A stretch of 64,000 nt of DNA from Amoebophrya sp. A120 (GCA_905178155.1 CAJINV010000005.1:7742989-7806988); one strand, 5' to 3'; counted from the stretch's first letter, positions 1 to 62,880 are shown. Made by a program: numbers and translations. Notes: generated from the letters alone by a model not told the origin.

Positions 1-3000
1 TTCGTCCAACGACCGGTGCCCGAAAGTCTTCAGGAGTCGCGGAGGTCACCGACAGAGCTTCAATTTTCCGCCTTTTCACCGGGTACGCGTAGCCGTCGGG
101 CGGACCGGGAACAGACGTGGTGCTAGAAGTTAAAATTGAAATTCTATGCGGAACAAGAACAGGACCGGCAATTAAACCAGTTTTTCCATCCCCAGTCCGG
201 TCGTCCTCATTTTGGTTCCTGCTCACATCGCGCGCCTCCGACTCCAAAGAGTCAGCTCTTCCAGCTTCACCTTTTCTTGCTGCTCGATCCACACTTACGT
301 TTCCGTCGAGCAAGACATTTTGATTTTTGGGAACCAACAGGAAAGACGGCCTTGGCGTCGCTCTTTCAATACTCGCTTGCTCCGCTGCATTTGTTGTAGC
401 GACTCGATGTTCTGGTAGTTCTTGGTGGTTTTCCTTTCCGGCTTCTGTTGCCAAGAACTCTGCTTCTTCCCCCCTATCCGCCATTACCTTTCGTCTCCCT
501 TCAAATCTCACCGTTTTCAATGTTTCCATATCCAGGAAAAAACAACCATCACCATCCATTTTATGCATGACAAACACAAAACTTCAATCATGTTTTGCAT
601 GACAAATTGGATGGGGATGGTTGTGTTTTTTTGGATATTCCACCATCTTCTTGTACACCTCCGAGGTTTCGGGAAACGGAACGAAGTACGCAGTGCAAAA
701 GTATCGTACTCGTAACGTATAAAATGCATTACAAATTTCCTCAGCATGAGAAAGAAAATTTGTAATGCTGATCTACCTCAAGAACAAGATCTGTAATGCA
801 TGATTGCAATACGAGTGCGATACTTTTGCACAGAATACGAAGCTGTCATCCGCACTTCCGTTTTGCAGCCGGTTCAAGTGCCATTGCGTTTGGTCCAGCT
901 CCCGCAACACTGCGCGCGCTTCTATGCTCTGCAAAAGTATCGTACTCGTAGTAATTGCAATCATGCATTACAAATCTCCCTCTGAAGCCAAATCCGCATT
1001 ACAAATTCTATCTTTCATGCTGAGGGAATTTGTCATGCGATTTATACTAGTACGATGCTTTTGCATTTCATAGCTTCCTCCTCCCGCTGCTGAATAAAGC
1101 CTTATGCTGTCCAAAAGTATAATTCGTAGTTATTGTGAATCTGGATCTGATTCTCAAACTCAATCCCATTGCATGCATGCATTTACAAATCTTTGTATAT
1201 TCATCGTTCTTGCCATAGAGCCGCATATACAATTTTCGTTTGCCATGCCGAGCCAATTTCATTTCTTGCTCCAAAAGTTTACAAAGTGCGATCATACTTT
1301 TGCGAATACGTAACCCTTTCGCCTTCGCGATTTCCACCCGCATTTGCAGCAGGTCCTCCCGACGCTTCGCAACGCGCGTTCCCAGCGTTTTGATTTTCTC
1401 TTCCAGCTCCACTGAGTTCATGACTCGGATAATTTGCTCTGCCGGGGCGGAGGACTCAGTTGAAGCGTCGAGCTCGTCCGATTGGTCAGATGAGATGCTG
1501 CCTCTCCTTGTGAATGTCGCAGTTACAACTTCATCAGGTGCTCGCACAACTAAAGAGGTTAAGGCCTGCTCCTGTTCGTCTTGCGGATTCGCAAGAACTT
1601 CTTCTGCATCCGAAACTAGTAGTTGTGAATTTGTACTGCTAGAAGAGGAGGATGCAGTTGCTGGTACTTCTGGTGCTTCTGGCACCTCTGATGCACCATG
1701 CAAAAGTAGAAGAGGTCCACTCGGACCCGCTTCAGTTGCGCCTCCAATCCTATCCTGTGCAAAAGTATCGTACTCGTCGACGTCGTTTAGATGCATTACA
1801 ACTTTTCTGAGCATGAGAGATGAAATAGAAATTTGTAATGCGGATTTACCTTAAGAAAAAAATGAAAATTTGTGACGCATGATTGCAATACGAGTACGAT
1901 ACTTTTGCACAGGATAGATCCCTTTTTCCTCCTCGTGATCCGCAAGAGCCAGGACGTGATCAGCCGCCTGCGCGTCGACCCGCGGTTTTTTCTCCAATCC
2001 CGTCAAAGTTCCACACGCCTCCTCCACTTGTTGCAGCATGGTTTCGATTTTGGACTCCGTACGTTCTACCGCAGCGAGTTCTGAGGACAGGTCGTCGATT
2101 AGTGCGGAAAATGCGTGTTGACAAACGACGTCCTGTCGGCGTGCAGGAAGGAAGCGGAAGCGAAGTGGGAAGACAGGGAGCTGCACATAATAGATCATGT
2201 AGTCAGTGCTGGTCTGTGCTTGTAGAAATTTCATCGGCAAGAACAACCTTCTCATGCGAAGTGGACCACGTATGAGCATCTTTTTTAGTCTATTGCGAAT
2301 TACTGAATTTTTCAAACACGACTCTGCTTGTGATGATGTGCAATTTCTTCAACCTAATGGAGCAGGAGCTTCCACCACCTTTTTACACGGCGACGACACG
2401 ATCTTTCAGCGGGGTAGAAGTGTGCGGCTGCGAATCCGCATGATTTCGGTGCTCAGCTGGGTTGCGCGGTCGGCATATGCGATTGGAAACTAGTAGCACC
2501 ATCGAGAGTAATTGAGATCCAAGAGCTCGAATTCAATCGATCTGATTCATTCCTTCCGAGACATGAAGTCAAAAGTTGGAAAAATATTGCATGGTGACTT
2601 CAGGCATGAAAAGACGTCTATCAAATAAACACGACTCTTGTAATATATAGTGTGACTAAGATGCTGGAGTTTCTCCTACATAACGATACGGCATGATCTA
2701 CTTGCTGCTCCAGCCGATCCTGACCTCCCAGCAGCGCGTTTTCCTCATCTTCCAGAACCACGTCATCGATCTGGGGCTCTTCTTCCCCGAGAAGACTGTC
2801 AGAATGATCGTTCTCGTCGTGCTGGCCGCGCTCCTCGTCGTGCTCAAACTCTTCGCCTTCAATTCTCGCTTCTTGTAGATCATTTTCGTGGGGCGGGTCA
2901 GGTACGTCTTCGTCCGTAATGGTATTCACCCTTCTTTCCGGTTCGTATCCAGAACCACGACCACCACTGTTGTTCGGTCCAGAGACGACCCCGGAGACTC

Positions 3001-3157
3001 CGAGGAACTCTTGCGTTTCAACATGAGCAGCTCGTACCGCCGTCGTGGTCGTGTCCTGATCGACGTCTTGTGCCGCATGATGACCTGCGGAGGACATGGG
3101 AGCAGGGCTATGGGGAGTTGCGTGCTGTGGACTAAAGACGCTGTCGTCAGCCACCAT
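1..3157 (-). CDS. Hypothetical acidic/coiled-coil protein, 3' end runs off the window
   Basis: Joining ORF 2621-3157 via a predicted GT-AG intron (2133-2701) and removing introners 1751-1916, 1103-1312, 923-1072, 687-837, 529-637 (+1 TSD each) gives one open frame ...EIAKAKGFIQQREEEARAVLRELDQTQW...SFVPFPETSEVYKKMVETLKTV... to base 1. The first-exon link is less certain. Confidence 0.6.
529..637. mobile_element. Introner family L
   Basis: TIR TATCCAGGAAAAAACAACCATC; TSD ttcca/ttcca. Confidence 0.9.
687..837. mobile_element. Introner family A
   Basis: TIR TAT-N4-TGCAAAAGTATCGTACTCGTA (left end TAC); TSD cgaag. Confidence 0.9.
923..1072. mobile_element. Introner family A
   Basis: TIR; TSD gcttc. 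Confidence 0.9.
1103..1312. mobile_element. Degenerate family A-like introner
   Basis: Eroded TIR; TSD agcct/accct; removal needed to match the frame of the next exon. Confidence 0.75.
1751..1916. mobile_element. Introner family A
   Basis: TIR; TSD aatcc/gatcc. Confidence 0.9.
2133..2701 (-). other. Predicted canonical GT-AG intron
   Basis: CAA|GTAGAT ... pyrimidine tract GACAG|GAC, phase 0. Confidence 0.5.
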
Positions 3158-4010
3158 GATGCCGTATGTCGTTTTTTTCTGTCCTCGACGCTTTTAGTGA
3201 TAGTGTACATGTAGTTCGCCCCTCTTGTTGCTGGGCGAACAAAGAGTCTGAGTCATACTCATTTTTCACAAAACTTACACTAGCCAATGCCAACATCTGA
3301 TTTATTCGAATTCCGTTTTTAGTTTGATTCAAATCAGCAACTGTAGCTCTGTCCTTGACGCGAGCAACAGCTGCCAAACCAATGAAAAAGCTTTGATTAG
3401 GTTTAGGATTACCAGCAGCGCATCTCTTTTGCTTTCGTTTTTTTGTCGGACCAGGCTTCGATGGGTGCAGCAACCGAGCGTATAAACGACCATCCGCCAA
3501 GCTATACCTCACACGATGCTTTATCAAGAGAAACGAATGACCGACCTTGAAACGAGGTACTGACCGGCGTGAACTCCCGAACCCGATCTTCCATGTGGGA
3601 TTATGTCCTGCAACTTGCGTTCCTTAATATTCATAGAGCGAATGAGTTTCGTTTTTGACGTATAAGAATGGGTACAACGTGTTTCTTGGTACAACTTGCG
3701 CCAGCTTCCTTTCGCAGTTCTGAATGGTGGGTCCACGAACTGGCGGTGGATACTGGCACAGGTCCATGTCCAGCACGAGGACCTGTCGCCGCCTGCATAG
3801 TTCGTTCCGGGTTTCTTGAAAGAAGAATACTCGTCTAACTGTTCGCTGTACAGAATGTGGCTCTTCTTGTAGGAGTTTTGTAAAAGGCTAGAGCTAGTAC
3901 AGAAGATGTTGACAGATGTAGTTGAGGACTACTACAGCAGCGAACACGATCTAACGGCTGTAGTTAGTATACTGTATCAATCCTCGAGTACGAGTACCAC
4001 CACCCATCAT

Positions 4011-4945
4011 TATCCTGTGCAAAAGCATCGCACTAGTAGAAACCAGCCATGCTCCGGCTGCCGCCGGAGCGCAAGGCTGTTGGGTCGGGGCAAGACTGTT
4101 TGCCGATAGGACCACAACCCCGCGGGCCTATGCACAACGAAACACATTGCGCCGCGCCAACCCGCAGGACCACTTGCGCGCTTCCCGCGCCTGTGGGCGC
4201 TCTGCGCAGGGAGCAGCTGCAAAGACCACCGGGGGCGAACAGAAACCGCCCGGCGGGGGAGGGTAGCGCGAGAGGGTGGCGCGAGAGGGTGCGCGAGAGG
4301 GTGGCGCGAGAGGGTGGCGCGGAAAGGCGCCGAACAAAACAGCTCCGCGAATGGCCTGCAGTGCCAAATATGGGTAGTGCCATGCGGATTCGCGCCCGCT
4401 TCTTTGTGTTTTACCCTCTCGCAGACCTCTCGCAGACCCTCTTTTTGGCCTCTTTTGGGGGTCCCCGCTAATAATCCGGCTATACTCGCGGGTAGAGGTC
4501 GACAGAGGTGGCCGAGAGGTGGCCAAGAGGGTCCGCGAGAGGTCGCCCCTTATTCGCGCCACCTCTCGCCACCTCTGTCGAACTCTCGCGCCCCCTCTTT
4601 TTGACCTCTCTGCACCCTCTGAGGCACTTAGGCGCCGCCTTAGGGTGGGTCCTTCGGCGGGCTATACTCGCGCACCCTCTCGCCGGCCCTCTCGAAAGGG
4701 GTCCCGCGCCACCTCTCCACCTCTGTCGACCTCTTTTTTACCTCTTTTGACCTCTTTTTGACCTCTCGGCCACCTCTTGTTTACCCTCTGTCTACCTCTT
4801 TTTTCGCATGAATATAATATATAGTAATCGCATGACAAATCCCCTCAGCACGAAAAGTGGAATTTGTAATGCGGATTTAGGTTAACACGGAGATTTGTAA
4901 TGCATGACTGCGATTACTACGAGTACGATACTTTTGCACAGCATA
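4011..4945. mobile_element. Introner family A with ~780-bp nested GC-rich insert (4040-4821), just 3' of a stop codon
   Basis: Both TIRs; TSD atcat/atcat. Confidence 0.85.
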
Positions 4946-4951
4946 ATCATC

Positions 4952-7900
4952 TCACTCCCGCAACCGGTACTTGCACACCGGACACTGACTGGAGTACCGC
5001 AGTCCTATGCACTGCAAAAATGTCTGGCTCTGGGTGGAGATTGCTAGATTTGTCATGCTTGTTTCACATGACGGCTGTATCTGTGATGCGTGAGCAGGTG
5101 GAAAAAAGCCTCTTCGCCTGTAAGGCATATTAAGTGCAGTTTGCCATGCAGAAAGCGAAGCACAGAGGAGCCCCGAATCTTGTCATGCGTGGCTGCGTAT
5201 TGCAGTACGTGTTCGTGTACGTCCGTCATTCACAAATTAGCATCACAAGTTTCCAGACCCAGACATATTTGAATTTGCAGCGGATAAGCCCAGTCTCGAT
5301 GCAATTTTTGTGAAAACGGTGAAAGCACTCCAGCCGCCCGAGGTCATCCCCCTCTTGAAACGGGCACTGACAGATTGCACAAACTTCCTCTTTATCAAAT
5401 GCAAAAATGTCTGGGCCTGGAAGAATGCGCGATTTGTCATGCGGCTTTTCCATGACCCATGAGGTCTGGAATGCAGGACCTAGCGCGACAGATTCTGTGC
5501 GATCTCTCTCATGCCTATCCTGCATGAGGAACTCCCTCGCGACTTGGTCAAAACTGGACGACTTTTGGTAATCATGCAACACAGATTTTTGCATGCTTCA
5601 GATTTAGCATGACAAGTTGCATTCTTCCAGACCCAGACATTTTGACATTTGATACTCTTCATTCCCTGTCGTCCTACTCGACGACCCCGCTGCTGCTGCT
5701 GGTGCTGACCCTACCGACTCTTTTCCCGCGGGCGGGGCGGAAAGTGCGGATCCAGACGAAGATGCTGGGCCTACGAGCGCCGGGGCCGCGCTCATCGAGG
5801 AGGCCGCGGCCGAAGAACTGCTGCCGCTGTTCTTGCTTTTGAACGTTTCCGCGCCGATTTGGCGGACCAGGCGCTGGTAACTTGGATCGTCGATTTCGTA
5901 GGGATCGTCATCGTATCAAATGCAAAAGTGTCTGGGTCTGGAATGTTGCCGGGTTTGTCATGCATATTTTGCATGACCCAGGATTGTGTGTGATGCATGC
6001 CCTACCATCACAGACTTTTAGAATCCTTCTCGATGCCTACTCCGCATGACAAATGCCCTCGTCCCCGCGTAGCACAAACTAGACTCCTCGTCTTGCTGGT
6101 CATGCAATACAGATTTTTTTAGAGTCCAAAGTTAGCATCACAAGTTCCAACCTTCCAGGCCCAGATGACATTTTTGCATTTGATACGGCAGCTCCGTGAG
6201 CGGCGGCCATCTCTTCCGGGCTGAAAGGGTCAATGAGGTTGCTGTTTATCCTGTGCAAAAGTATCGCACTCGTAGCAATTGCAGTCATGCATTACAATTT
6301 TTTTTCCGAAGGTAAATCCGCAAGACAAATTTCATTTCTCATGCTGAGGAAATAATTTGTATATGCAATTTATACTAGTACGATGCTTTTGCAATTCATA
6401 CTGTTGCTCCCGGAACGAAAGCTACTACCGTAGCCGTAGTCACCGTACGAATCTTCGTTGTTCCCATGATGATCTTCGCCGTCCATGTCAAAGTCTCCGT
6501 CGCTGTCGAGGTCATCATCATCGTCCGACCAATCTCCGTCAGACATAGAAGTACCTTCTCGACGTTCCCGCCTGCGGGCCAACTGCTCTATCCTGTGCGA
6601 AAGTATCGTACTCGTACTAATTTCAATTATGCATGGCAAATCTTGTTTTTAAGGTAAAACAGCATGACAAGTTCCAGTTGTCATGTTGAGCAAATTTGTA
6701 ATGCCATTTACACTAGTACGATAATTTTCCAATGCATATGCTGTGCGTACCGCCGGTCTTCGGCTTCTTGGTGACGGCGCAGGCGTTGCTGCCGGTCCTC
6801 AGACGAGCGGCGGCGGTAGTTGTTGCGGCTGCGGTTATTGGACGGCGAGGACGCGACCGGGGAGCGTGAAATACCGGGAAGGGCGCCGTAACCTACGGAG
6901 ATATAGAAGTTTTTCTCAAATTCTCAAATCAAAGAGCCTGAACTTGAACTATCAGTAGACGTGAAGAGTCTACAACTCGTCGCCCAACTTCCACTGGGCG
7001 AGCACGAGCTCACGAAGAGTCAAGCCAAATAAAACTACTCGGAAGATTTATCGTCAAGCCGTATTTCATCAAGTACAACGACTCGCAGTGGTCTTCGCAT
7101 GACATCAACTACACAGTACCTTGCGTCATGTTGTCCGCGTGTGCCGTATCGGAATTCACGATCAAAATGGTTCCGCCGAGCGGACTATCCACTGCAAATA
7201 TGTTTGGGTACTCAAGATTGCGAGGTTTGTCATGCATATTTTGCATGACCCATCGTGCCTGTAATGCATAACCTAGCATCACATATTTTTAGAGCGCTTC
7301 GTGATGTCCATCCCGCATGAGAAATGCTCTCCTCGCGTAGCACAAACTGGGCTCCTCTTGTTGGTCATTCAATACAGATTCTTTTAGAATCCAAAGACAG
7401 CAACGCAAGTTGCAACCTTCCAGACCCCGACATATTTGCTATGAATACGGAAACAGGCCGGGAAACTTTTCCAGCTCCTTGTACAGGTTGTATCCTGTGC
7501 AAAAGTATCGTACTCGTAGTGATCGCAATTATGCATATACAAGTTTCTTTTTCAAGTTGAATCCGCATTACAAATTCTATTTCTCATGCTGAGGAAATTT
7601 GTCATGCATTTATACGAGTACGATACTTTTGCAGTTCATATGTCGGCCTTCGGGACGATTTCCCGTCGAGCTAACGCACCACTTGTGATCACGACCTGAT
7701 AAGTGGTTTATACATCTCGTTCATGCGAATGCGAAATTCGAAAAAATCCATTTTGCTGCAAAACTTTGCTTGAAATTCATCTTCTCGTGCATTGTGCAAA
7801 AGCGTTCTACTGGTCCTGGCTGCATCCGGATTTTATTAAAATCTTATCAAACTACTAGAAACTGTCACCCCCATTCGATCCGACGCAAACACAGAAATAA

Positions 7901-10900
7901 ACGACTTAGCATTACAAATTCAATTTGTCATGCGAATTTGCCTTAACAAAAAGATTTGTAATGCATAAATGCAAATCAAGTTTGCGCCGGCGGAGAGGAG
8001 GCAAGTTGATACTTTGCTTTCGGTACGCGAAAAAAGCTTGCGGAGACAAAGTCAAACACTGCAAGCGGAACGGAGCGACCATAGTACTCGTAACTACGGG
8101 AAGATTCGTGATCGTCGATTGCGGGTTTCTATCTTTGAGGATGATCTCGTCGCTAGTGCAGCTAGTGGCTAAGTACAAGTAGACAAAAGAAAAAGATAGA
8201 ACTTACAGTTTTTGATCTTCATGAAGATTCCCTTTATTTTAAGCGCTTTTTTTTGAAAAAAATGCTGACCAACAGGTCAAGGATCTTCACTCCACCTCCT
8301 ATTACCGGTCACCACACGAGAAGATTAGAATGATGTCACAGCAAATACCAAAAAAATTCATACCGCCCACGCGTTCTGGCCCTCCTCGCTTGCGATGGGT
8401 GGGAAAGCCGTCTCGATGAAAGTCAACAGTGGCACGCTGCCCGCGTGGTTGGGGTCAAACTCGTGCGAGTTTTCCATTCTGCCGTCCGGAAGCCGGATTC
8501 GGATTTTGCGCATTGTGTGCGGGTATCGGTTCGGTGCGCTCGCTCGCGCGGCAGAGGAGGACGAGGAGGAGGCCGCACCTCCACCAGTAACGGCAGCAAC
8601 AGGGCCACCCGCACCTCTCACAGCGGACGACGAAGAAGAACTCGCCCCCGGAGGTCGTTGTTGATTGTCATTGTGCTGCTGGCACGTCGGCGGCGGGACT
8701 GCAGCGACTCTGGCTGCTGTCGAGGAGGAATTGTTGTTTTTGTTTACGCCAGGAACTACAGCTACGTGAGGAGCAGGAGCATCCTCGCTGTCAGAGATCA
8801 ATTCCACGACCTCGTTAGTACTCGTCGCTGCTCCAGGTGGCTGTTGGTGTAGAGGTCCTTCACCAGGTTGGAGCACAGCCGCAGCGGCCGCTACTCCTGG
8901 TAGCTGGTCCGCGGCACCTGCAGCAGCAGCAGCTCCTGTGGCGTTCTTGCCACCACGAGCAGGAAGAGGAACTCCCTGGCCATCGCCTTGTTTCCCCTTG
9001 CCTTTCGTAGTTCCCTTGTTGTTGTTCCCGCCTGGCCCTGGCGGTTGCACTAGAGTACCGGGAATAAATGCAGCGGAGGAACTAGATGAAGCAGCTCCCA
9101 TATTACCGCCTCCACTTGTACTATTCGGATTTACGACGAACGCGGGCCCCTGCTTTAAAATGTCGTTTTTGAACCCGACCTGCCGCCGCGCTTCGCGGAA
9201 TTCGCGGTCGCGTTTGGCTTCGTCCAGAATTCTTTGCTGCTCTAGAATCTTCTCCTGTCTTTTCCTCTGCATCTCCTCCTGCCGCTGCTGCCGTTCTTGC
9301 TGGGACAATCCGCCGGACGCGGGTATGCACCGCAAACATGTACTCTTGATGTGGCTGATGCACATTTTACAGAACACAGAAATTTGTAATGCATGGTCAG
9401 CATACAAGGTTGTGCAAAAGATTCAACTCCGCATTCGTAGGCAAAAACAAAAAAAACTGCATGACAAACATGGGCACGACTTGATGCCCAGACCCTGCAC
9501 AGGACATGTTTGCAACTGATAGCGGTTGTACAACCGCTAGAGGACCCAGCTCCAGGCGGAAAGACGCTGCGACTGTTCTGCGCGATGACCGCATTGGTAT
9601 TTTTATCATGAGGAAAACTCCCCCCTCCCCATATCGAACACGAAACTTGTGATGCCGTATTTGAGTACACAAATCGACTTGTGTTGCCAGAAGGCCAAGA
9701 GACGCAGTTGTGGCCTCGCTTGCAGGCAATTTGTCTTCATGCTGTTCCCCACTTCCAGCTGTCTCCTGTCATGCTGAAGATGCAAGGCTTTCCCACGCAG
9801 CCCAGCAGTACAGTCCGCATCTTTTCCCTTCTGGCATGACAAAGCTGATTTGTGACCACAAATCTGCATCACAGACTTCCAATGTGATATGGGGAGGGGG
9901 GATTTTTCATTTTGATAATTTTTCTTGACCCGCTTCGGCAAGCTGTCCGTTTCCTTGCTGTTTGGCGAAGCAGCGTTTTGTTCCTGAAGATGAGATGGGT
10001 TCGATTCGGATTCCCCAGTCAAATCCACGATCTCCATCGGTATATTTATTGGAGCCACTGCCTGACTCTCCGGGACGTCAGACTCCCGCAACACTAGCGA
10101 GCATCCGCTGGACCGGCAGAGTTCGCTATCGTCTTGCAGCAACAAGCTCCAGTCTAGGAACACCGTGCGGGGCGGGAAGGCCAGAGAAAGCTTGTAGTTT
10201 TGCAGCTGCTGCCTTGTCACAGGACACCGGATAGCAGTAGTTCTCGCTGTACTAGTACTGGCACCTCCTGCTGCTGCAGGCGCGGGAGTCGGTGTGCTTG
10301 GGGGCGCCCACGCCGGCGCGGAAGTACCAACATTTCCATTCGAAGTAGCCCCACCTCCATCACCGCCGGTTACTACATGATCTTCGGTATCCGTCCCTAC
10401 AAATGCTTCCAGCATCTGCTGCAGCGTTGTTTTCTTCGGGTCAAACGTTTTCGTCTCCCGCCAGCGCTGGCACTGCAGCGTGATCCTCACTTTTGGTTGG
10501 TTCAACTCGTCCTCGGCAATCAGTATGCACTGCAAATATGTCTGGATCGGGAAACCTGTGATCATGCTGAATTGAGCATGATAGAAGCGCTTGCAGTGGC
10601 AGCCAAGCATGACAAGTTTTTGAGTCGCCTGCTGATGCCTAGGTCTAGCACGCATTACAAATTGCCTTTTTGCATGACAAAGCAAGTTTCTCTTTTGCTG
10701 CTCTTCATGCAACACAGATTTTCCAGGAATGCAAGACACGCATCACAAGTTCCACTTTTCCAGACGAAGAGTACACTTTTGCATTTGATAATCAGGTCGA
10801 GAACCGTTTGACTCAGCCGACGTTCATTTGATTGGTCTGAATTCGCATCTATCCTGTGCAAAAGTATCGTACTCGTATTCATGCATTAGCATTACAAATC

Positions 10901-14279: not shown

Positions 14280-15670
14280 GTTTAGTGATTTATTTTCCTT
14301 CGATAAATTTCAAGTTTTGTTTCGTGTCTGTACCGAGGGGAAGGGGCAACTAATTTATTTTCGAGAAAGGATTACACACAACCACTTTCTTACCCACTCC
14401 TACATCGGAAGGTAGATTTTTAACATCACGCGGATACAATTTCTACAATACCAACCTTGGTCATCTTGCAACCACTGATAATCTTCTAAAACTACAGGAT
14501 TTTCAAACAAAATTTCGTCACAGAGAACGACTCGGCCGCACGGACCAACTAGATCAATAAACTGATTTACCGCGATTCATCGAATCAGGCCTGTGTCTGT
14601 GAGTGTGACGCGAGCAAAGAAATAACAATCGACTTCGAATCGAGTTTCAACGTAGTTCATCCGAATGCTGGCAATGGATTCAACTTCAAGTTCAAATTCA
14701 AGTTCAACCTCTTACGTGAGATAATTAGGATCAACGAAAGCAAAAAAACGCCCATAGAAGTTCCGTGCAGCAGCTTTTTTCTTTTGCACTTTTGAAAGGA
14801 TAAGGACTCAAATAGATGGCATGGTCCTCTCCGGAAACTTTTGACACACAGGCAATTCTAATTAATTTAGGCAAAAAAATCAGTTTTGATATCACTTGTG
14901 CTATCTTCATCGACCTTGTGGCTTTTAGCTTGTTTTTGTTTGACGCTGAAGTAGCGTTTTATCTTGGTCTTGTCCGCTCCATGGGCATGCATGTTCTTGA
15001 GGAGATCCGGCAAGTTTTTGGGGTTTAGACAACAAGAACTGATGAATCCACCAAATATTTGCAGCAATAGCAATACGGCCACAACTCCCTACATTTTCAT
15101 CCAACCTGGAAAACCTCAAGTACAACGACCACCCTTCAAAAAACAAACTTATCATGGCAGAAACGCAGAAAGAGAAAACCCGGTAATGTTGGAAATGCAA
15201 TTGAGGAAACAAGCTTACCAGGTATCACTGACGGCTTTTGCTGCCTGGCTTCTTTTATTCTTGGACGAACACGACTGCGACACGGATAGCAGGAAAAAGC
15301 TAGAGCAGCAGTTCGCTGTTCGTAGCTGAAGTTTCATATTGTTCATTGGCCCAATTCATCAATTTCATTTTCATGCTCATGGCTGTTTCGTCTGCCAATG
15401 CACGATCAGCCCTGGCTTGGTACATTTTGTTTTTCTTTTTCCGAGTACAAGAAAATTGAGTTGACTCAAAGAAAGCGCTAGTACCGCACGCACAATCAAA
15501 AGCCGTCGCCGTCCTGTGTTGTCATTACTTACAAAACAAGACCCTCCTGTGACAGAATGTACAGGTGGAAGTACAACATTTCGTTAGATTTAGAAGCTTC
15601 GATAGCTCAATCTTGGATTCAAGTTTACTTTTCGTTTTCCTCTGAAGAAGATCATTTTTATCTCCGATAT

Positions 15671-18600
15671 TCATTTCACCGCAGCCTCGATTTTCTTCAG
15701 CAACACCGAGCGAAAATCTAGCACCGGTCTTGGATCGTGACGCGCATGGTGGACATTTCCACCGCCCGCTGCGCCTAGTGCTGACGAAGAACCTGAGTTA
15801 CAACTTGTCTCGCCCCGACTACTAGATGAAAAACCGACCGAAAAGTCTTCCTCCCGCAAGACGAGTAATTTCCAGCCCAGTTTCCGTATCAGCCGGTGCT
15901 TGAACAGACTCATTCCGTCCTGCTTCCCGTCAGATAGAAAATGTTTGCCGCCCCGCCCGTCGATCTCGATGGCCAGGTTTAGATCTGGTAAGAGCAAGTC
16001 GATCAGCAGGAGGTCGTCGGAATTCTCGAGCGTTTATCCTGTGCAAAGTCTCGTACTAGTAGTAATCGCAGCCATGCATTACAAGTCTCCATCCCATGGT
16101 AGATCAGCATGAAAAATTCCATTTCTCATGCTAAGCGAATTTGTCATGCGGTTTTGATTTATACTAGTACGTTACTTTTGCAATGCATAGTGTGGCCTCC
16201 GCGACTACTGTGTTCACGTTCGGCATTTGTTTCTCGGATTTCAAAATTTGGTACAACTGTTTGTGGAGCCGGTTGCAGGCTGGCAGGTGCCGCTTCGAGG
16301 TGAGAAGGGCCGTGTCAGTTGTAGATGTGGTCTTTTTCGAAGAGAAGTTTGGATCACTGCTTGCAGCAGGACTTGGGGGAAGAGAACGACGGGAAACTCC
16401 GCCCTGTTCAAGCTGCTGTGCGCTTCCTTTCGTAGAGATCACCGAGCCGTCCCCGTCTCCTCCGTCGTGGCATGACAGGTTCTCTTGTTCATTCCGAGCC
16501 TGCTCCCTAAACAAGCGCAGACACAATCTGACGTACCCTAACTGCGTTTTCTCCATGTCTGGGAGCTGCTGCAGAAGAGTGTCGTGTGTGTTGGTATTTC
16601 TCGTAAAATTTCCGTAATGCCGGTCCTCTGCCGTGCTCCTGCATGACAAACTGTCAACATTCACTTCTGACGCGAGTCCACTATTCCGCAAAACCTTCTC
16701 GGCTAATTTGTAGTGTTCCAATGCGCACAGAGACCACGCAACACACACAAAGTTGCGGAGTTGGAGTTTTGTCAGCTTCTTGCTGTGGTGTCTCCTTTGC
16801 CCACTGCCACCAACACCATGACCATTTGCAGCGTTTTCACTTACCAACTGGTCGTCTTTCTCGTCCAAAAGGAAAGGCCTCAACCCTTTATCTAAGTGTT
16901 TCTCCGGCCTATACCCATCGAAGTTTAACACCGCGAAACCGAAGATCATGGAGACAAAGTCTCGGCTGGTCGTGCACGCGGTCAAGGACAGTTGCTCCAA
17001 TAGCTCTTTATCCGTAATCCGGTTTTGCGCCAGCGTGTAGCACGCGATAGAAGCGATGGAAGAGGCGAGCGATTTGTTGTGTTTTCTCTGCGTCAGGGAT
17101 AACAGACACAGAGACGGCTGCTGGTAGCTACCACTAGAAGAGCCACCAGCTCCCAGAAGTTGCTCGAGAACTGACTTCAGAAAACCGGAGTTTACCAGAA
17201 ACGCCAAGAAATTCTTCGCATCCCGATTCGTCGTCGTGTCCCACTTTGGGGTTTTAAGACTACTATTCCCGTGGGTAAAATTGGAATGCGCAACCCCCGG
17301 GGTGATTTCTTGTCGCGACAGTGCGGCGAGAATCGTTCTCACGTCTTGGATATGAATTGCAAAAGTATCGCACTCGTATAAATGCAAGCCTTGCATTACA
17401 AATCTTGTTCCCAAGACAAAGCTGCATTACAAATTTTATTATTATTTCTAATGCTGAGAACATTTGTAATGCATTTATACGAGTACGATACTTTTGCAGT
17501 TCATACTGGAACCGGAGCTGGGTGATGGCGGCGGGATGGAGATCATGATTTTTTTCTCGTGCGGAAGATAAAGTTGTAATGATCCTGTGTAAAAACGTCC
17601 CCACTCCATAGTTGTCATGCTAAACAAAATGCGACACACTTTGCCCCCCCATTGTGCCATGGCCGCAGATGGCTTGAGACGCAGGGAGGGTGGGTCAGGC
17701 GGACACCAAAGTGCCATCGCCATCATCTCCCGGCCACTATATTCCAACTCTGTTTATCGCCACCTGCCAACTTGCCAACTCCATAGTTGTCATGCAACTC
17801 TGCATGCTTAGCATGTTTCTCATGCGGGGCCCCATGAGAAGCGTTTTCTGATGCGGTTTTGAAGTTTGTCAATGTCATGCTCCAATCAGCATGAGAAACT
17901 AGATCTGTAATGCTGCTGAACTAGCTCAAACAGCACTACACTACGCGTCCAAATTTGTCATGCCGAACAACCAAAGCTGTGTGATTTGTCTAGCAGATTT
18001 CCCAAGTTGACTCTGGTGTGGGGACGTTTTTACACAGGATAGTAGTTCTTACATCCTGGAACCGGAGCTGGTTGATGGCGGCGGGATGGAGATCATTATG
18101 TCCACCTTGTGGGGAAGAAGAAGAAGTAGTAGTGTCTGACACTAAGCACGTTGTACTCGTGTATTTGCAATTTTTCTCCACCAGCTCCACAACTCTTTGG
18201 AAGGCCAAGTTTTGCATCTGCCTCAATATCGTCAGAACCGTCGCTTTGGACATCTCGTTGGCCGCTTGCGGCTGCGAAATATGCATTGCAAAAGTTTATC
18301 GTACTCGTACTAATTGCACCCATGCATGACAAAGTCCTTCACGTTGAGCCAAATCAGCATTACAAATTGCATTTGTAATGATCATCATGATGCTGAGAAT
18401 AACCTTTGTAATGCAATAAATCTACGAATCCGAAGATAAACTTTCACACTGGATACGAAAACGCAAGGGCAAATTTGGATAGAGCGTTGATCACACCCGC
18501 TAATGCAGTGAAGGCCGAGCTTATGAGAGTGCACAACTCCTCCTCCCCCTCTTTTGTAGTGCATGAACAGCAATACAAACACCAGTACACGTGGAGCCAG

Positions 18601-20443: not shown

Positions 20444-20779
20444 ATTGATATTGCTTCTGGCTACTTCACTTTGGAAAAACTCTGCGCCAACAGCCGCCAG
20501 TTCCAGTTTTATGCAGCTCTTATCATCATCGATCTGGGTCTAACTAATAGAACGAAATAGAAGCAGAAAGATAGACTACAACTTCAACGGCCACGAGGGC
20601 GGTGCGGCTTGGCTTTAGGGTTAGCAGTAACAGCACGATTGCGAATACAAACGAAAGTAATAAGTCCAAAGGCAACGAACAGTACGGGCGTACACCCAAC
20701 GCCAGCTCAATCGCTATTCCAGGGCATTTGCGCACAGGGTCGCGTCAGACAGTGACATACTCAACGGCCAACGAGGGTC

Positions 20780-22750
20780 ATCCTAAAAGGTAAAGGTCAG
20801 CAACAAGCCCACACGCATAATGGCACGCAGGCAACTAACACACACGGCCCTGGCCCGGGCGCGCGACCTGCAATGGGCGGGCGCGCGCGGCGGCCAACCT
20901 ATGGCAGCGCCAAAACAAAAGAGCCGCGCAAGCGGCCCGCCGGGAGGGTCGGCGACCGGCGGCCGCCCGAGTCGCCGATATGGCAGGAAACGCCCACGCC
21001 TAACAAACCCTACCCGCGCAGCAGGTTGAGTAACCGAAAACGAGAGCAACGAACGCCACCGCTCGGCGTTGAAAAGCGACGCCCACCATATTGCACGGGC
21101 GCGCGCGGCGCACGCTATCGAGAAACCCGCAGGGGGCTGGTGCCAGAAGGCCAGACCCGCCACACGATCAGAGGGCGCGGACCTGCTCAAACGGATCACC
21201 TTGCCAGGCAGGGGTCCCCAAGAAGGCAATCGGCCTCGTGCTGGGCGCGACAAGGTCCCCAGCCTGCAGACCCTGGGGGCCCGCGTGGACATCGCGCCAG
21301 GCGTTGCGGCACCCCGCGACCTGGCTGCCTGCCCGTCGTCCGTTTGGCCGGCGCCGAACCAACGCCGCGCGCCGCGCCCCATGCCGGCGGGTCACGGACG
21401 GGGGAACGACCGGCGGCATGCTCAAGATGGACGAAATCAGCCGCATAGGTGGCCACGTTCGCCATTGTCGCGAACTGGTCGTCGAACTGCGCGACGTCAA
21501 GCTCTTCGGGATCGGGAAAGCTCAGCATTAGGCTCGCGAGCGGGGAGTGGGGGAAATCACAGAGCCTGGCCCTCAATCTCTGGAACTGCGCCGCCTCCGC
21601 ACCGCCGTCGTTTGTATAGGCTTCCGCCCCCTGCAGTTGTTCCAAGGAGGCGCGCCTGCGCTGCGTGAGGTATTCGCCAGGACCGGGCGCAAGGTGGGCC
21701 ATTTGCGTCTGTGGGGGCCGGAGAGATTCATTGAAACGATCGCGGCCGCCCCGACGCCGGGGGGCACTACGGCAGGCAGGCCACAAACAACCGCCCGCGG
21801 GGGCAACAGGCCGGAGGCTGGGGCCCATGGGTTGTCGCCCTCCTCGGCCGCAAAGGTAAGCCCGCGGCCCCTCCAACTAAGTAACACTTTCCGCAATCGG
21901 CTTCGGCCTGATCCACGTCGCCGCCTGCTCCGCTTCGCATCTGCTTCCAAAAGTGCGCCATTTTGCGCGCGCTGCCTCGCTTGTGGGCAAACCATTCGGC
22001 CTGCCTCGCTTGTGGGCAAACCATTCTGCCGCGCTTGGGCCGCGAGTGAGCAAGCGCGGCGCGCTTGCTCACTCTCGGCGGGCTATCACAGTCGCCGGCG
22101 CCACCGTGCGGGAAAAGCAGAAACACTCGGGCCATGCCACCGCCCGGCCGCACGGCAATGGGCGCGCGGCCTAGCCTGGCGCGCTTTTGCCGATTCCCTG
22201 CCGCCCCGGCCGTATTTGGTAGAAAGCCCAAAGCCAAAAGCCTTCACGCCCTGCGCCCGCAGGGCCTTCGTCGATTTGCGGCGCTACGTCTACACGAAAC
22301 AGCCCGCGCCCATCCGTAGCGGCGGACCTGCCATCCAAGTCCCACAAGTAGGCACGCGCGTGAAACACACGGGGCGCGCATCGGTTGCGCAGAGCTGGCG
22401 GGCCTTGCGCCTGTTTTCGGCCTCCTTGCCGGTCCAAAATTAAAGGCCGCGCGGAACTGGCACCAGCGGAGCGCAGGCGACCCCACCAGAGGGCCGGCAA
22501 AAATTGGCCAAAGCGCAGAAGCGGGAAGAGTTGCCTGCGCCTGCCAACATCTTGCGCCTGTCCTCGATGTTTTTCCAACCGGCGGGCCCAATAACTCGGC
22601 GCGCATTTGTTCCCCCCGAAGAATAAAACGAGGCAGCAGCTCGGCGAGGTAGCAGCTCGACGACGGTGCCTTTGCCACTTCCATCATACTCTTCTTGCCA
22701 CATTCGTCAGCGAGAAGCAGCTTCAGAGCCGCCCCCGAAAGAACACGCGG
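20780..22750. mobile_element. GC-rich intergenic block, possible decayed transposon
   Basis: Abrupt GC rise, broken ORFs, 26-bp tandem duplication 21972-22026; no diagnostic domain recognised. Confidence 0.3.
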
Positions 22751-23074
22751 AGGACATTAGCATTACTCCATGTTCATACGCGTCCAATTTTATTTTCCAT
22801 CACGAATTAGGACGGAATCTTTAAAGTTGTATCTTCGATGCGTTCTTCCTCTTCACTAATTCGCGTTTTTTGTCGTTCTTTTGCTTCATCAAACAATCAC
22901 TTCGATGAAGCCTTCTGATAGAATTTTTGTCAACATCATCTGAAACAAACTTTACCCTATGCTCAACTTCTTCTACTTCGAGTTTACAACTTACACTTCA
23001 ACTTTTAATCTTATTCATCAGGCTGACAGTCTCATAGCTACAGCACACCCCCTACTACTTTTCCTTCGTCATCG

Positions 23075-26000
23075 TCAACTTCCACCCATCCCATACACGA
23101 CGGCCCCTCCTCCGCCCGCCTTCACTTTGATCACGCCATTTTCCTCATCCACCACCGCTTTACTCACGGCGACCCCTGGAGGAAATAACGTCATCGAGGA
23201 CCCGTTGTTCCTGCCTTGCTTCCCCCGGCCTTTACTTTTCCCCAGCTTGTTGTTCCCCGCCGCGCCTCCAAAAGCTCCTCCTGTCCTCTCGTGCAACGGC
23301 GAGTAGCCAAAAACACCCTTCCTTTCCAGCGCGTAGAACTCACTCATGCCCTGCAGGATGTCCTGGCCCACGATGGTGAGGCTCGACTCTAAAAACCGGC
23401 TGTGAAACTTCATCGCGTTGGTGATGATCGTGATCGGGGTGGTAAGTGCGAAGATCGGCAGTTCCGTGTAGGGCTTCTCCTGGGAAAGTTTTCGCAAGCA
23501 GAAGGTCGCGGGCAGGTGACGAATCATCGTCGTCGAGATTTGCGCGACGGGCGAGAGTTGTGCTTGCGTTTCTTGGGAAGAAGGTGCCAATCCTGTGTAG
23601 TGGTTTGGTGTTCTTCTACCACTTCTACTTTCACCGGTTTTATTCGACGTTGCGGCAGAAGTGACGGTAGTAGAAGTGGCTCCTGCTGGTCTACTCTTCA
23701 TCTTCTCCTGCTCGTCCACCATTTGTTGCACTTCCTCCGCCTGTACTAGTCTCGACGCCTGCTTGGTCTCCATCTCGAGCGCAGAATCGAAAAACGAAAA
23801 CCAAAGTCGGGACAAGTCCTCGTTTGTCAGCACTCCTGCGTTTCGATCGCAGTACTGGTCCGCATTGGTGATCAGTTTCGTTGTGACAAAATAGTCACTT
23901 TTGCTTTTGTTCCCCATCACCGAAGATCCAGGAATTTTAAAATCCTCTACCGCCCGCGCTCCGGCCGTATTGTTGTCCCCCTCGTGTTCTTCTTCTCCGG
24001 TGATGTTCCTGGTGCCAACATGATCAAGCAGCAAAAGATGGCCAATTTCGGTTCTAAACTGGCGCACAAACAACTGGATCGCCCGAGCGTGGTCCCCGAC
24101 TTTTTCCAACAGCCAAATTGCTCCGTCGATGATCGTGCTAGAGGAAGCGGAGGGGGGCGATGGTGTTGATCTCTTATTCAGACTATTTATTCCGGAACCT
24201 GTTGTCATGTTGCCGATCGTGATTCCAGTTGTACGACCCGCCTTGCCTGACAGTGCACCAGAAGCTGACCCTGCACCTGCTTGTTGTTCCTGTTCCTCTT
24301 GCAACTTGAGCAAACACTCCCGCAGCGCCTCCTCCACCGGTAGAATGGATTCGAATTCCAGGATATCAAATGCAAATGTGTCTGGGACTGGAATATTAAA
24401 CTTGTAATGCTAGGTGGACAATCTTGGGGACGTCCCGATTGGTGGCCAGGCATGACAAGGTTTTGAGCTGCTAGGTACTATGCCTGTTCTGCATGGCAAA
24501 CTGCGTTCTTTCCAGCGCAGCACAGAAATTATAAACTCGAATGCTTGATGACTAACGCGCATGACAGACTTGAGAGTCATACTGGCTGAGCATGACAAAC
24601 TCTGCATTCTTCCAGAGACATATTTGCAACGCATACAGGAAAAAATCAAACACGTTCTCCGGCTCCTGGTCGATCATCAGCTTTGTGAACGAAAGGATTA
24701 TGCAATGCAAAAGCATCTTAATACTACGTGTACCGAAAAATCGCATGACAAACTTTCTCGAGAACAAGAGACTATAGAATTCGTCATGCGGATTCAGTTA
24801 GTAACTAACCAGATTTGTCATGCGTGATTATACGATTAGTACGAGTGGGATCATGCTTTTGCAGTGGATATGGATGTACGACTGGCAAAACTGGAGCTCC
24901 GTGGACGTTTTCGTTGCTCTCAAGGTACTAATATGCATTGCAAAAGTTTCGTACTCGTAGTATTGCAATACAAATTAGCTCAGCATGACAAATGGAATTT
25001 GCCATGCTGATTTAGCTTGAAAAATAAATTTGTAATGCTAATGCATAACTGCAATTTTTAGCACGAGTACGATACTTTTGCAGTTCATAACTAGTTGTGT
25101 TTTGATTGGCACCTTGATGCTCTGCGTCCTGCTGTTCTTGTTTATTCCCGCCCGCTGCGGTCCTAGTAGTTCCTGTCGTAGCTATTCCATGATGCGACGT
25201 TTTCAACACTTATCCACAGTAAACTTCCCGCACACGTACAAATGCGGTCTCTGCATGACAAAACTTGGCTTCGATCCTAGTATAGCATAACAAGTTTTAC
25301 TACGCTCCAAATTGGTGAAATTTGTGATGCATTTTGTACATGTACGGGAAATTTGTATTGAATAACACTCCATCATGGTCCATACCACTCCCCCCGCTAG
25401 TTGTACTTCTGGTCGAAAACAAGTGTTTGAAAAATTTGATCTGCAAGTGCGGCAAATTCTTCGTCAGTGCGTCAGCGATCTGCTTGTAATCAGACTGAAA
25501 AAGTTCCTTTCCCGCGATCAAGATGATTTCGCAGGTTTTTTCCAAGTCGATCTGTTCTAATTTTTTCAGTAATTCGTTGTTATCCTCGGTAAAAACGCGC
25601 CAGAGGTGGCTGTTCTGTCGCTTCGCGGGGGACGAGTTCGATTTGTCGTTGTTGTTTTTGATCAGTTGCGTCAAATATTCAAACAGCCCCGCGGTCGCCT
25701 TCGCTCGGGAGCCCTGGTCGGAAGGCATTGAAGATGCGAGGGTTGTGGTTGCAGCAACTGCTCCGGACCCTCCTGATGATGAAGCGAGATCGTTTATTTG
25801 CGTAGGATTTCTGCTCGCATTTTTTCCCTCTACGACCTTCGCTGGGCTCGCGGTCCGGAGCTGCAGCTCGTACAATTTGAGCCTGGAATTGATATCCCAG
25901 GAAAAAACAATGTAGGCGTAAGTTTTATTGGAGGCACAGCATTACAAATCTGTCTGGCATGAAAACAAAAATCTGTCATGCGCAGAGCGTACGGGAAAAC

Positions 26001-29000
26001 GCGTTTGAATGGATCTTACATCAATGCATGCCCAGCATGACAGCTGCAATCGCTTTGCATGTTGCGCATCACAAAGTTACACCAACAATGTTTTTTTGTT
26101 CGGATAATTGACCGCCTTGCTGTATTCTTCAATCGATTCGTAGAGAAAGGCCTGCAGGCGGAGGAATATCAAACAAAAGAAAAGTGCTCACGTTATAACG
26201 GTTCTCACAGATTGCAGTAACGCATGACAAATTTTGGCTAGCATGCGTGCTATGCAATACAAATTCAAAATTGAGCACCTTTTCCAACAAGTGATTGTGA
26301 TGCATTACTGCATCACAAATTCCGTTAACGTTAAACACTTTTTCCTTTGATAAGGAAAGACCGTCTCTCACACTGCGCGATGATCTGCTGGATGGCACGC
26401 TGCGGGTTCTGAATCGTTTCAACGGCTGCTCCTGCAGGATTAGCTGGTGGATGAACTCTATGCTCTGCAAAAGTATCGCACTCGTAGTAATTGCAGTCAT
26501 GCAATTAAATTTTTTTCTCAAGGTAAATCAGCGTTACAAATTTGATTTGTAATGCTGGGCTAAATTGTAATGCAATTTATACTAGTACGATCATGCTTTT
26601 GCAGTGCATAAACTCCGTCACTCAGAAGTTCCTCGTGCGGGTTGAAATACGGGAGAGTTGTTGAGCCCGACCCTCCTGGCAGCGCCACACCAGTCGCTGT
26701 ATTGGAGTAGTTCACGACGGTACCCTTATTCATCATCTGTAGTTGCGGTTGCCCAGGAAGACGAGGACCTGGACCACCTCCAGGAGTCGATACAACAGCT
26801 GCCAAATTCAAGAACTTCTCGCACCGTTTGAAAATCAGCACGCACAAATCTTCCAACTCCGTGACGGTGGCTTTGTAGGAATGCAGCCGCTGTTTCGTAT
26901 CTTCCACCAGGCACTTTATCACCGTCATTCCGGCCTTCTGAATCCAGATCGAAGTCTCTTCCCCGTTTATCCCATGAAAAAACTGTTTCACTGTCATGTC
27001 TTTGCAAGATCTGCTTCACAAGTTTGTTGAAAATTTCTAATGCGCGCTTTCCCGGGGAAAACACGCTTGAAAATCCAATGTATTGCAGGCGTAGCAAGAC
27101 AAGTAGTTCTGTGTTCCATTTTCTGCATCACAAGTTCACAATGAAAAAGTTTTTTCTTGCGATACCGTTGGCCAGCGCCCGCCCAATGAACCAGGTGTAG
27201 CAGTCGGCGGCGTGGGCGAGTTGCTTCTGCGAAATTTGCGTCGTCGCGGTTTTTTTCGTGATTGTAAACCACTGCTTAAAACTGACCATAACCTCCTCAA
27301 TAAACGTGTCCTGCGACTGGAGTAGTTTCAGAGCCTCGTTCTTCTGCGCCCCCTGCTCCACCGACAGCTTGCTGCTGTCTGTATGGAAGTGCACAACTCC
27401 CCGCACTCCCCCACATTGTATGGCATGAACAGTATCACAACCACCAGCACAGGCGGACCCTGTGCATGACAAGTTCTGCGCCGAAGGAGTGCAGTACTGT
27501 TTGGGATTCCGGAATTATTTGTTATGCACACTGTGCCACAGAGCGGCAACTGGATTTGGGTTTTTCCATGACAAATGAGGTGGACGGGGAGTTGTACACT
27601 CTCATAGTCTGTCCGCTCATACCAAAAAACGTTCCCGCCCCCCACCGCGCCGCCGGAAGAGAGAGAGAATAATTGCGCGAAGGAGCGGAACAGTGATACG
27701 GGGGACAGGTTCATGATCTTCGCGAACATGTCCGGCGGGGCGTCGGCCACATCCGTTTTCCGGCGCAAGAAAATTCGCTTCAGAACGTCACGGATCTCCA
27801 CACTCGTAGGCGGCTCGGTCCCCGCGAGAAAGCTGGATCCGGACAGACTGGAGAGGAGGAAGTGGTAAAGCTTGCGCACCAGCAGGAATTCGCAAAGTGC
27901 CGGCTCGATGATCCTGACATCTTCGCTTGACGGTTGATTTCTCGGAGAACAAGAAGTCCCACGACCTGCTGCTGCAGATGTAGTTTCCATGATGTTGACA
28001 CCAGGCGGCGTATTTGCAGGCGAATTGACGTTCGATTTCCGTTTCGACTTGTTAAAAATCCGCGTGCACTCCCCGATATCCACTGCAAAAGTATCGCACT
28101 CGTACTGATCGCATTGATGCATTACAAGCTTTTTTGTTAAGTTGAATCCGAATTACAAATTCCATTTCTCATACTGGGGAAATTTGTCATGCAAATTATA
28201 CGTAGTACGATGCTTTTGCAGTCCATACCCGACGAGCAGCTCCAGTGGACTGGTAAAATCTTTCGTCGCCAGGTACACGTAGATCAGGGCGGTGTAGTAT
28301 CCTGTGTAAAAACGTCCCCACCCCATAGTCAAGTTGGGAACTTAGCAACACAAACCCAGAAGTGGTGGGAGCCACGCATGACAAGTTGCAGGCCGTAGTG
28401 TAGTGCATGCGAGCAAGGACAACCGCATCACAAATCCATCTGCTTATCCTGTTACCAGAATTACAAATTCCAAAACACGACTGGAAATCCCTTCTTTGGG
28501 GATGCGCATTACAAACGTTCCTGTAATCGCAAATCTGCATGACAGCTCTGGTGTGGGTATGTTTTTACACAGGATATGTAGCACCGAAACTGCGTGAGAA
28601 TCCGGATAGCCAGGTTGAGATCCAGACGAAACAGGTCGTTCCTACTGGAAATAACTAAGCGGGTCAAGTGCAGCGCGGATTCGAACGCGTGCGGGAAGAA
28701 GTCGACCTGTCAGTATTGGCGTTGTTGAATTCAGCGTTTGAAAAAGTTATGCAAGTAAAACAAATTTTTCTCGTTATAGTATGAAGGCTCCTCTGGGTGC
28801 GAGCGACATTCCGACGTAGCTACTTTAGTACTCAGCGAAAAACGCGATGGTGCATGCTGCTTACACAGAAGCTTCTTTGCGTGTAAATACCAAAGTCGTA
28901 AAATCGCCTGAGTACAAATGATTGAAAAGACAAATACAATCGATTCAGGATGAAAAACCGTTTACCTGATCTTCGCCGAGCTTCACATTCAGATACTCGT

Positions 29001-38806: not shown

Positions 38807-39543
38807 GGTGTGAAGAAATGGAAATTACGGGTTGGATTTTTTTCAATTCTATCGTGATGAACAAGCGTATTTCTTGCGCGTGAGCGAGCTATTTGAACAT
38901 GATCTGTGCTTGGAAGCAAAGTAGACAAACAGAAAGGCGGTTTTTGTTTTCGCTTGTGCGTTCGCCTGACGCTTTTACACGACTAGTAGTAGAGCGCAAT
39001 TCTACTTACTGACCTCGTCCTGTAGAATAAGAGTTTTTTTCTATGGACTGCGGCCGTCGCACAGAAAATCTAATGCAGAGGAGCAGAGTGGAGGTGTCAA
39101 GATCGTGATCTTTCAGCAGCGCGTCATGATAATGCACGCTCTAGATGGTGGCGATCCCTCACCTGAACACAGCGCAAATGATCTTTCTCGTTGTAAGTCG
39201 AGCTTTCCGCATTGAACACTGACCGAAAAATATTAGTAGCACATGCGCTACTTCTTTCCCAACTTTATCTCTTCAAGAGCAAGAACTGTATGTGCCTGTG
39301 TGGATGTTTTCGTGCGGAGTATCAAACTCCTTTCGATTTTTCAAAAAACTCACTTAGACTTGTTAATCTGAAACCTTTTACTGCCTCGCATTCCGTTTTA
39401 CACAACATCGCCGTCAACACAATTTGTGTTACACAAGAAGAAGAACTGATAGATCCATAAGTCAAAAACAAGTAAGTATCACCTCGCCCCCCGCTTGTCT
39501 TCTCATTTTTCACAAAAAGAGACAAAAGCGGGAGACGAAATCC

Positions 39544-45723: not shown

Positions 45724-46031
45724 CTTCTTTATGAGGTTTTATTTTAGTCGCAAGTTAAAGTTCTTTCATCCCGGCAATATACCAGACAGCGAGCCAGAGG
45801 GTCCTCGTCGTCCCTTTCTGCTCCGGAAAAGCAGAGTGAGTCGTAATTGTAAATGGTGTCCGTGAAGATCATATCATAAGTTGTGGAATGGTGGTCCTGC
45901 GATAATTCGTAACCAGGTCACAGTAGGTTTCTCCCGAAGGCGAAGACGACATTAACAAACTCCGAAAGTTTTTCAGCCACACGAGTCTACTTCGGAGAGA
46001 ACCAACTGCTCTCGCCAGGCGTGCTAGTCGA

Positions 46032-62725: not shown

Positions 62726-62880
62726 TATGGATTGCAAAAGTGTCTGGGTATCGAAAGATGTGAATTTGTGATGCGCACTTCACATCACACAAAAATCTGT
62801 CATGCATGGAAGCCAAAAGCTGCACACTTCTCGCCACAGAAAGAAGGCCTGTGTCATGCGGATTACGCACGAAGAGACAT
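62726..62880. mobile_element. Left half of a family B introner; partner end not in window
   Basis: TATGGATTGCAAAAGTGTCTGGG plus internal TGTNATGC motifs; no right TIR or gggac TSD seen. Confidence 0.65.

Follow-up and report, generated by a model that had tools for sequence, protein, structure and literature searches.

How can one and the same transposable element interrupt a gene in either orientation and still be removed exactly from the transcript? This question is raised by a 64,000-nt window of the Amoebophrya sp. A120 genome (GCA_905178155.1 CAJINV010000005.1:7742989-7806988), the whole stretch of DNA analysed here, in which two neighbouring copies of an element termed family A, at 687-837 and 923-1072, lie within one gene. 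An earlier interpretation made from the sequence alone (the sequence-only reading) had noted that these copies are inverted relative to each other, and had proposed that such elements work in either orientation through symmetric recognition, either of the stem formed by their terminal inverted repeats (TIRs) in pre-mRNA or at the DNA level. Non-canonical introns make up about two thirds of A120 introns, and in the accessible text of the source paper their mechanism is left open and their splice positions undefined (PMC7789003). In this study, 95 TAT...ATA elements with 5-bp target duplications were identified in the window, every one in a minus-strand gene, and one cut register, directed by the transcript and blind to element orientation, fits every informative junction.

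The element set comprises 92 elements from a search for inverted ends and duplications, self-BLAST and inspection, together with two from RNA joints and one from an annotated protein. Among the first 92, the duplication is perfect in 64 and matches at 4/5 positions in 21, and the three later-found elements match at 0-2/5. Of 94 ends, TAT is present at 89 in one set and at 85 in the other, positions 11-14 are A-rich, and the AAA of the terminal repeat is absent from some families. Eight families hold 86 of the 95 elements, J and K merging into one at a looser threshold. TIRs, fixed-length duplication, lack of coding capacity and occurrence in both orientations were all found, as for miniature inverted-repeat transposable elements (MITEs); even the four elements enlarged by inserts, 4011-4945 (935 nt), 52919-53436 (518), 59576-61298 (1723) and 17581-18041 (461), have a longest stop-free stretch of 72-179 codons, and the insert inside 4011-4945 reaches a high copy number in the DNA run. 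No intact element was found in the 8.2 kb outside long frames (14400-15670, 20540-23078, 45730-48930 and 62780-64000), which, against 95 elements in genes, points to insertion into, or retention in, exons only. A family A remnant at 7905-7975, whose ends are not intact, sits inside the canonical GT-AG intron 7696-8363, where such ends are unneeded, and a left element end for which no matching right end was found lies at 62726-62869, bordering the last gene on its upstream side. Because three proteins of the window are identical to A120 proteins (three exon translations, 100% identity over 100% length), the elements, judged by sequence, are the published A120 introners of Farhat 2021, for which the accessible text describes the same TAT + 7 nt + AAA inverted ends, 5-bp direct repeats, hairpin and RNA-supported removal (PMC7789003). 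Host, TIR pattern, 3-5 nt repeats, repetition, removal from RNA and non-GT-AG ends all agree with the published description of introners.

The inversion of the neighbouring copies does not depend on their inverted ends. While 687-837 (151 nt) and 923-1072 (150 nt) align better as reverse complements (120/155 columns, score 171) than in the same orientation (103/169 columns, score 83), the comparison was rescored with the terminal 25 nt cut off, so that the ends could not decide, and the interiors still score 98 reversed versus 29 forward. The inversions also proposed for families L (529-637, 109 nt, and 32180-32288), J (34145-34449 and 54598-54903), K (45038-45350 and 62317-62638) and G (25211-25364 and 55281-55439) were recovered in the same way, with 76 versus 24, 266 versus 45, 276 versus 34 and 91 versus 20, respectively, the best of 100 shuffles scoring 23-27. 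Among these pair members, 529 is supported by an RNA-contig joint (523>638, 4/4 runs) and annotated proteins run across 54598, 55281 and 45038; gene support for 32180, 34145, 25211 and 62317, the last upstream of an annotated start in the same open frame, comes only from a frame that opens after in-silico removal.

Orientation was read against the host strand, all host genes lying on one strand, and no plus-strand gene with elements was found in the 64-kb window, so the findings cover minus-strand hosts only. Family A orientations number 13:19 (p=0.38; 14:18 at a looser threshold), the spread over 8 families and 86 elements resembles coin tossing (P=0.23), and the only hint of bias comes from the second largest family (4:12, p=0.08). 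A strand-specific branch-like motif is absent, YTRAY in the last 60 nt being counted 26 times in sense and 25 in antisense among 95 elements, a general consensus from which A120's own branch consensus may differ. Lariats aside, the window thus holds neither of the features that the sequence-only reading had named as counter-evidence, a strong orientation bias and a strand-specific branch point.

Removal was followed in the contigs of four runs (X1-X4), whose RNA status was guessed and which represent at most 2 samples of 1 study, aligned to positions 1-6900. The four runs behave as RNA in that a GT-AG intron is skipped in them; the length of one contig agrees with the removal of two elements and two GT-AG introns (150 expected, 150 seen), and over 14583-15850 the depth of X1 is zero, against 28-31 for the DNA-like run X5. 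All 13 elements in 1-6900 are skipped with exactly 5 extra nt. In family A, orientation 1 is represented by 687 (joint 680>837, skipping 156 nt, 3/4 runs), 1751-1916 (4/4 runs) and 4011-4945, which is removed whole together with its repetitive insert (joint 4005>4946, 4/4 runs), and orientation 2 by 923 (917>1073, skipping 155 nt), 6247-6400 (6241>6401) and 6589-6738 (duplication 4/5; 6583>6739), each in 4/4 runs. Copies of both orientations being missing from transcript contigs and the counts unbiased, the proposal that the elements work either way round is borne out. The inverted copies indeed share one minus-strand gene, as single X3 and X4 contigs run from 1312 to 523 and carry 148 nt between, exactly three small exons. 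Two elements are partly retained, 687 with the piece 638-749 and no joint in X2, and 2110 in X2 and X4. An effect of orientation on efficiency, suggested by the partial retention of 687 and not of 923, was rejected, as 1751 and 4011 share the orientation of 687 and are joined in 4/4 runs; contigs cannot measure splicing efficiency, and the 49-nt exon does not phase neighbouring elements. In DNA, X5 contigs span 5 elements unbroken at depth 25-29, with 1103-1312 among the elements spanned whole. X5 is one DNA run whose joints were judged among the 15 listed of 1262, swamped by repeat cross-matches, and the repetitiveness of family A precludes showing a DNA contig across one of its copies.

Where the two copies of a duplication differ, the position of the cut can be read, and is given here as k, the count of bases that the intron takes from its 5' flank. 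Only k=1 is compatible with all 13 joints, the intron, read along the transcript, being 1 nt + UAU...AUA + 4 nt. Of these joints, two are non-slidable: 2105>2418 at 2110-2416, a decayed element (duplication 0/5) with no predicted terminal stem, and 2471>2684 at the old element 2476-2682 (1/5), which fits 1+4 exactly. While the element ends at both were set after the joints had been seen, k=1 stands without them: the single-copy element 1103-1312 (4/5) and 5914-6185 of the second large family (2/5; 0 or 1 nt) allow at most 1, and 1751 (4/5) needs at least 1. In annotated proteins, 19/19 elements with imperfect duplications fit k=1 and 10 exclude k=4; at 55967-56331 (2/5), the element found via an annotated protein, only k=1 among 8 registers tried yields the annotated peptide. 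Within family A, orientation 2 is pinned to k=1 by 7491-7640 (1-3) and 52368-52492 (at most 1), and in orientation 1 both 41478-41636 (0-2) and 51872-52027 (0-3) exclude k=4, and 1751 excludes 0. A cut fixed to the element would give k=4 in orientation 1, thus the register follows the transcript. The symmetric recognition previously proposed does not agree with this result, for the cut is polar, with 1 nt at the 5' side and 4 nt at the 3' side, and follows the transcript and not the element. The register also holds where the duplication has decayed. For 687, with perfect duplications at 682-686 and 838-842, it would place the intron at 683-838, and for 923, with perfect duplications at 918-922 and 1073-1077, at 919-1073, limiting an 80-nt exon at 839-918 between the inverted copies; both introns and the exon are read from the minus strand. 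In Table S4 of PMC7789003, each of the nine predominant non-canonical sites of A120 is NT-NN, in agreement with the fixed register, though the authors did not read them so.

Once each element and 5 flanking nt are removed in silico, frames of 512 to 2243 codons open, all on the minus strand; 82/92 elements then sit in frames of at least 400 codons, none of them on the plus strand, and 72/92 elements contain stops in all three frames. Removal of +2, +5 or +8 nt restores frames alike (82, 82 and 80 elements), so that it is the contigs that decide for +5. For three annotated A120 proteins, agreement with the in-silico product is exact block by block over 49 elements and is interrupted only by three GT-AG introns and by one missed element (55967).

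What, then, reads the ends of the elements? Orientation independence alone is expected of inverted-repeat elements, with precedent. Elements are inserted either way round with a 5-bp duplication, and the element and 5 nt are then removed from the transcript. We give roughly even odds to removal from pre-mRNA by a relaxed U2/U6-type spliceosome reading the element ends. The inverted ends would put N-UA-U-G/C at the 5' side and A-U-A-NNNN at the 3' side on either strand, and as the two ends are inverted copies, orientation presumably cannot matter. The directional signals of U2-type splicing, previously taken to argue against the spliceosome, lose their force here: with inverted ends, identical directional signals stand on both strands, thus removal in either orientation needs no symmetric machine. 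The 5' end would be recognised as a donor whose first base is free, with U at +2 and A at +3 as in the GT-AG donors of the window, the terminal stem would juxtapose the ends and so replace U1 and AG scanning, the 3' cut would be set by distance from the element end, and the conserved A at -7 is predicted as a candidate branch nucleotide. Such a spliceosome would keep U2, U5 and U6 without U1; U2, U4, U5, U6 and 83/89 spliceosome proteins are reported for A120, with U1 not detected (PMC7789003, accessible text). The end sequences are suggestive: +2 is U in 95/95, +3 is A in 94/95 and -7 is A in 94/95, with pairing partners of these positions deviating 5, 3 and 4 times (12 versus 2 in total; heterogeneity p=0.04), and under k=1 the 5' end N-TATG (N-UAUG), found in 47/95, is in register with the canonical donors of the window, 2/4 of which read GTATG (GUAUGA). 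The exon base +1 is a purine in 54/94, giving no clear purine rule. The one element of 95 with G for the conserved -7 A is 687, also a copy with a retained piece (n=1).

Several observations weigh against a spliceosome, or against the data behind it. A 3' AG occurs in 5/94 only, at chance level, and the +1 G excess is weak (34/94, p=0.03, one of many tests); a pyrimidine run and CAG 8 nt before the real cut in family A copies such as 1751, 4011 and 6247 are left unused by the contigs; the -7 A lies within the predicted stem without a visible U2-pairing consensus; and in 57660-57953 both ends are altered together (TAT to TGT, ATA to ACA), a compensatory change that fits pairing, whereas 30183 and 55577 carry only the 3' change. 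The asymmetry between the ends is small (14 events), in a grouping picked after the counts were seen. In addition, the RNA-like contigs stem from at most 2 samples of one study under a guessed label, two raw RNA runs of the same species label (X9 and X10) did not map (2 and 3 reads over 19 kb), and the annotated proteins come from RNA-guided gene models that are not independent of such reads.

Close behind the relaxed spliceosome, and somewhat less probable, comes a non-spliceosomal RNA route of the kind suspected for the nonconventional introns of euglenids: a protein endonuclease would bind the stem and end motifs and cleave with a stagger that leaves a 3-nt 3' overhang across the stem, after which the exons would be joined by a ligase. 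The spacers outside the inverted motif are fixed at 1 and 4 nt, as against N3 and N5-6 in Euglena, whose N6 form gives an equal offset across the stem (PMC12501133, accessible text). No G or AG would be needed and the ready canonical acceptor is ignored, and the transcribed strands of 687 and 923 are both predicted to form a terminal stem (z -6.9 and -5.2), the terminal triplet being predicted paired in 66/91 elements; the two partly retained elements, 687 and 2110, have weak predicted terminal pairing. However, 13/91 elements have almost no predicted terminal pairing, with 2110 among them still cut exactly, and the conserved positions are one-sided and match the donor register. Selection on the stem as RNA was not seen either, G-U being no commoner than A-C (41:41 in pairs 1-10, and 39:49) and sense stems no stronger than antisense ones (pairing 0.66 versus 0.67; energy difference -1.7 kcal/mol, p=0.07). 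Thus of the stem recognition in pre-mRNA previously proposed, the predicted terminal stems stand, while its symmetry does not, and the RNA strand bears no mark of selection for pairing.

The three remaining explanations appear very improbable. Internal eliminated sequences (IESs) of ciliates are transposon-derived, TA-bounded and precisely removed from coding DNA without strand preference, and programmed excision of this kind, acting ahead of transcription on a genome copy that is somatic or stage-specific, would suit the TA-starting inverted ends, the transposon origin and the lack of orientation bias of the A120 elements; rare or stage-specific excised alleles could also escape one DNA run with 15 of 1262 joints listed. 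Yet 5 elements are spanned unbroken by DNA contigs, and from a symmetric staggered DNA cut both registers, 1 and 4, would be expected once the DNA had replicated, whereas 7 joints with imperfect duplications show one form per run. Rejoining would moreover need the central 3 nt of the duplications to be alike; 5 elements match there at 0-1/3, and for 4 of these contigs or annotated protein show an exact junction. The IES-like excision put forward by the sequence-only reading is therefore hardly tenable. Reverse transcriptase can jump across hairpins between short direct repeats and so fake introns, and a hairpin with a 5-nt direct repeat is a classic substrate, only cDNA-derived contigs having been seen; this is slightly less credible still, as the long frames described above open only after removal and most elements hold stops in all frames, the non-slidable joints are exact without a direct repeat, and a homologue at 50% identity aligns gap-free over the 41036 and 41478 sites. 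Excision from DNA and the reverse-transcriptase artefact are both disfavoured because the register holds at decayed duplications. Equally doubtful is the view that these are ordinary spliceosomal introns whose GT-AG ends have slipped or been edited. Slidable junctions can mask true ends, and 1/94 elements reads GT-AG under register 1, but the non-slidable joints end otherwise, which refutes slippage for those, and possible editing is reported at just 2-4% of intron boundaries in the accessible text of PMC7789003.

The host gene of the inverted copies occupies 1-3193 on the minus strand, where taking out 7 elements leaves a stop-free frame of 619 codons that runs off the left end of the window, with a GT-AG intron upstream at about 3085-3412, skipped in the RNA-like contigs; three of its exon pieces gave no Pfam match. 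The long genes without exception run along the minus strand, in keeping with the blocks of co-oriented genes described for the genus Amoebophrya. In the window, Pfam named 1/20 exon pieces, a WD40 repeat at 35593-36552, within the 2243-codon frame at 28948-38824. The 1680-residue protein P0001 (4955-14279) has precomputed RING-type Pfam hits, most other exons being without a Pfam match. At 59189-62779 the open frame continues beyond the start annotated for P0002, taking in six further elements on the upstream side, and this gene model may be truncated.

A fixed register that follows transcription and ignores orientation makes DNA excision unlikely and would explain how any insertion can be neutral. 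Exact predictions follow, for where the cuts fall, for a donor-like UA at +2/+3 and for an A at -7 as candidate branch nucleotide, and tens of thousands of slidable junctions could be re-annotated consistently. If removal ran by a route convergent with that of euglenids and proved lariat-free, it would represent a second chemistry of nuclear pre-mRNA splicing in an alveolate. A120 introners and either-orientation introners elsewhere are known already; no statement of an orientation count or of a fixed polar register for A120 was found in the accessible literature text, a scope that leaves aside the figures of PMC7789003, subscription journals and bioRxiv supplements. In the main text and supplement of PMC7789003, as far as accessible, the word 'strand' is absent and passages on 'orientation' concern genes. 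That paper describes the splice sites as varying in position around the hairpin (Fig. 3 legend; Fig. S23 legend, 1-5 nt), in contrast to the single register found here, and its authors found no cognate autonomous transposase in A120.

The introners of Polarella glacialis and Aureococcus anophagefferens likewise produce target duplications, yield introns whichever way they are inserted and restore the mRNA exactly; they have GT/GC/GA donors and AG-type acceptors supplied by the element or the duplication, and are biased to one orientation, whereas the A120 elements of the window are unbiased and need no target dinucleotide (10.1101/2020.10.14.339549, accessible text). Because these canonical-ended introners are also removed in either orientation, such removal is compatible with a spliceosome. 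From U2-type introns the A120 elements differ in their ends, which are not GT/GC...AG (+1 any base; AG 5/94), and in the absence of a strand-specific branch consensus by the YTRAY motif (26 versus 25 of 95). Ciliate IESs leave the DNA, whereas the A120 elements stay in the DNA contigs of one run, with a variable 5-bp duplication and a transcript-polar junction. Nonconventional introns of euglenids, a lineage unrelated to Amoebophrya, a name that does not occur in the accessible text of PMC12501133, likewise lack GT-AG and carry an inverted terminal motif at fixed spacers with the 5' spacer shorter (PMC12501133), and a MITE origin is likely for them, as here (PMC12501133; PMC11282704; accessible text). 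Their signature N3-CDG ... CHG-N5-6|R differs from N1-TAT ... ATA-N4 found here, and circular products and a need for pairing are reported for Euglena (PMC12501133). Common to both are a terminal stem, predicted in A120, and fixed spacers. We tentatively propose, as a possibility below even odds, that A120 has a splicing route convergent with that of euglenids, which would read any TAT...ATA insert on either strand by a 1+4 ruler with no target requirement, healing insertions of up to 1.7 kb exactly in mRNA.
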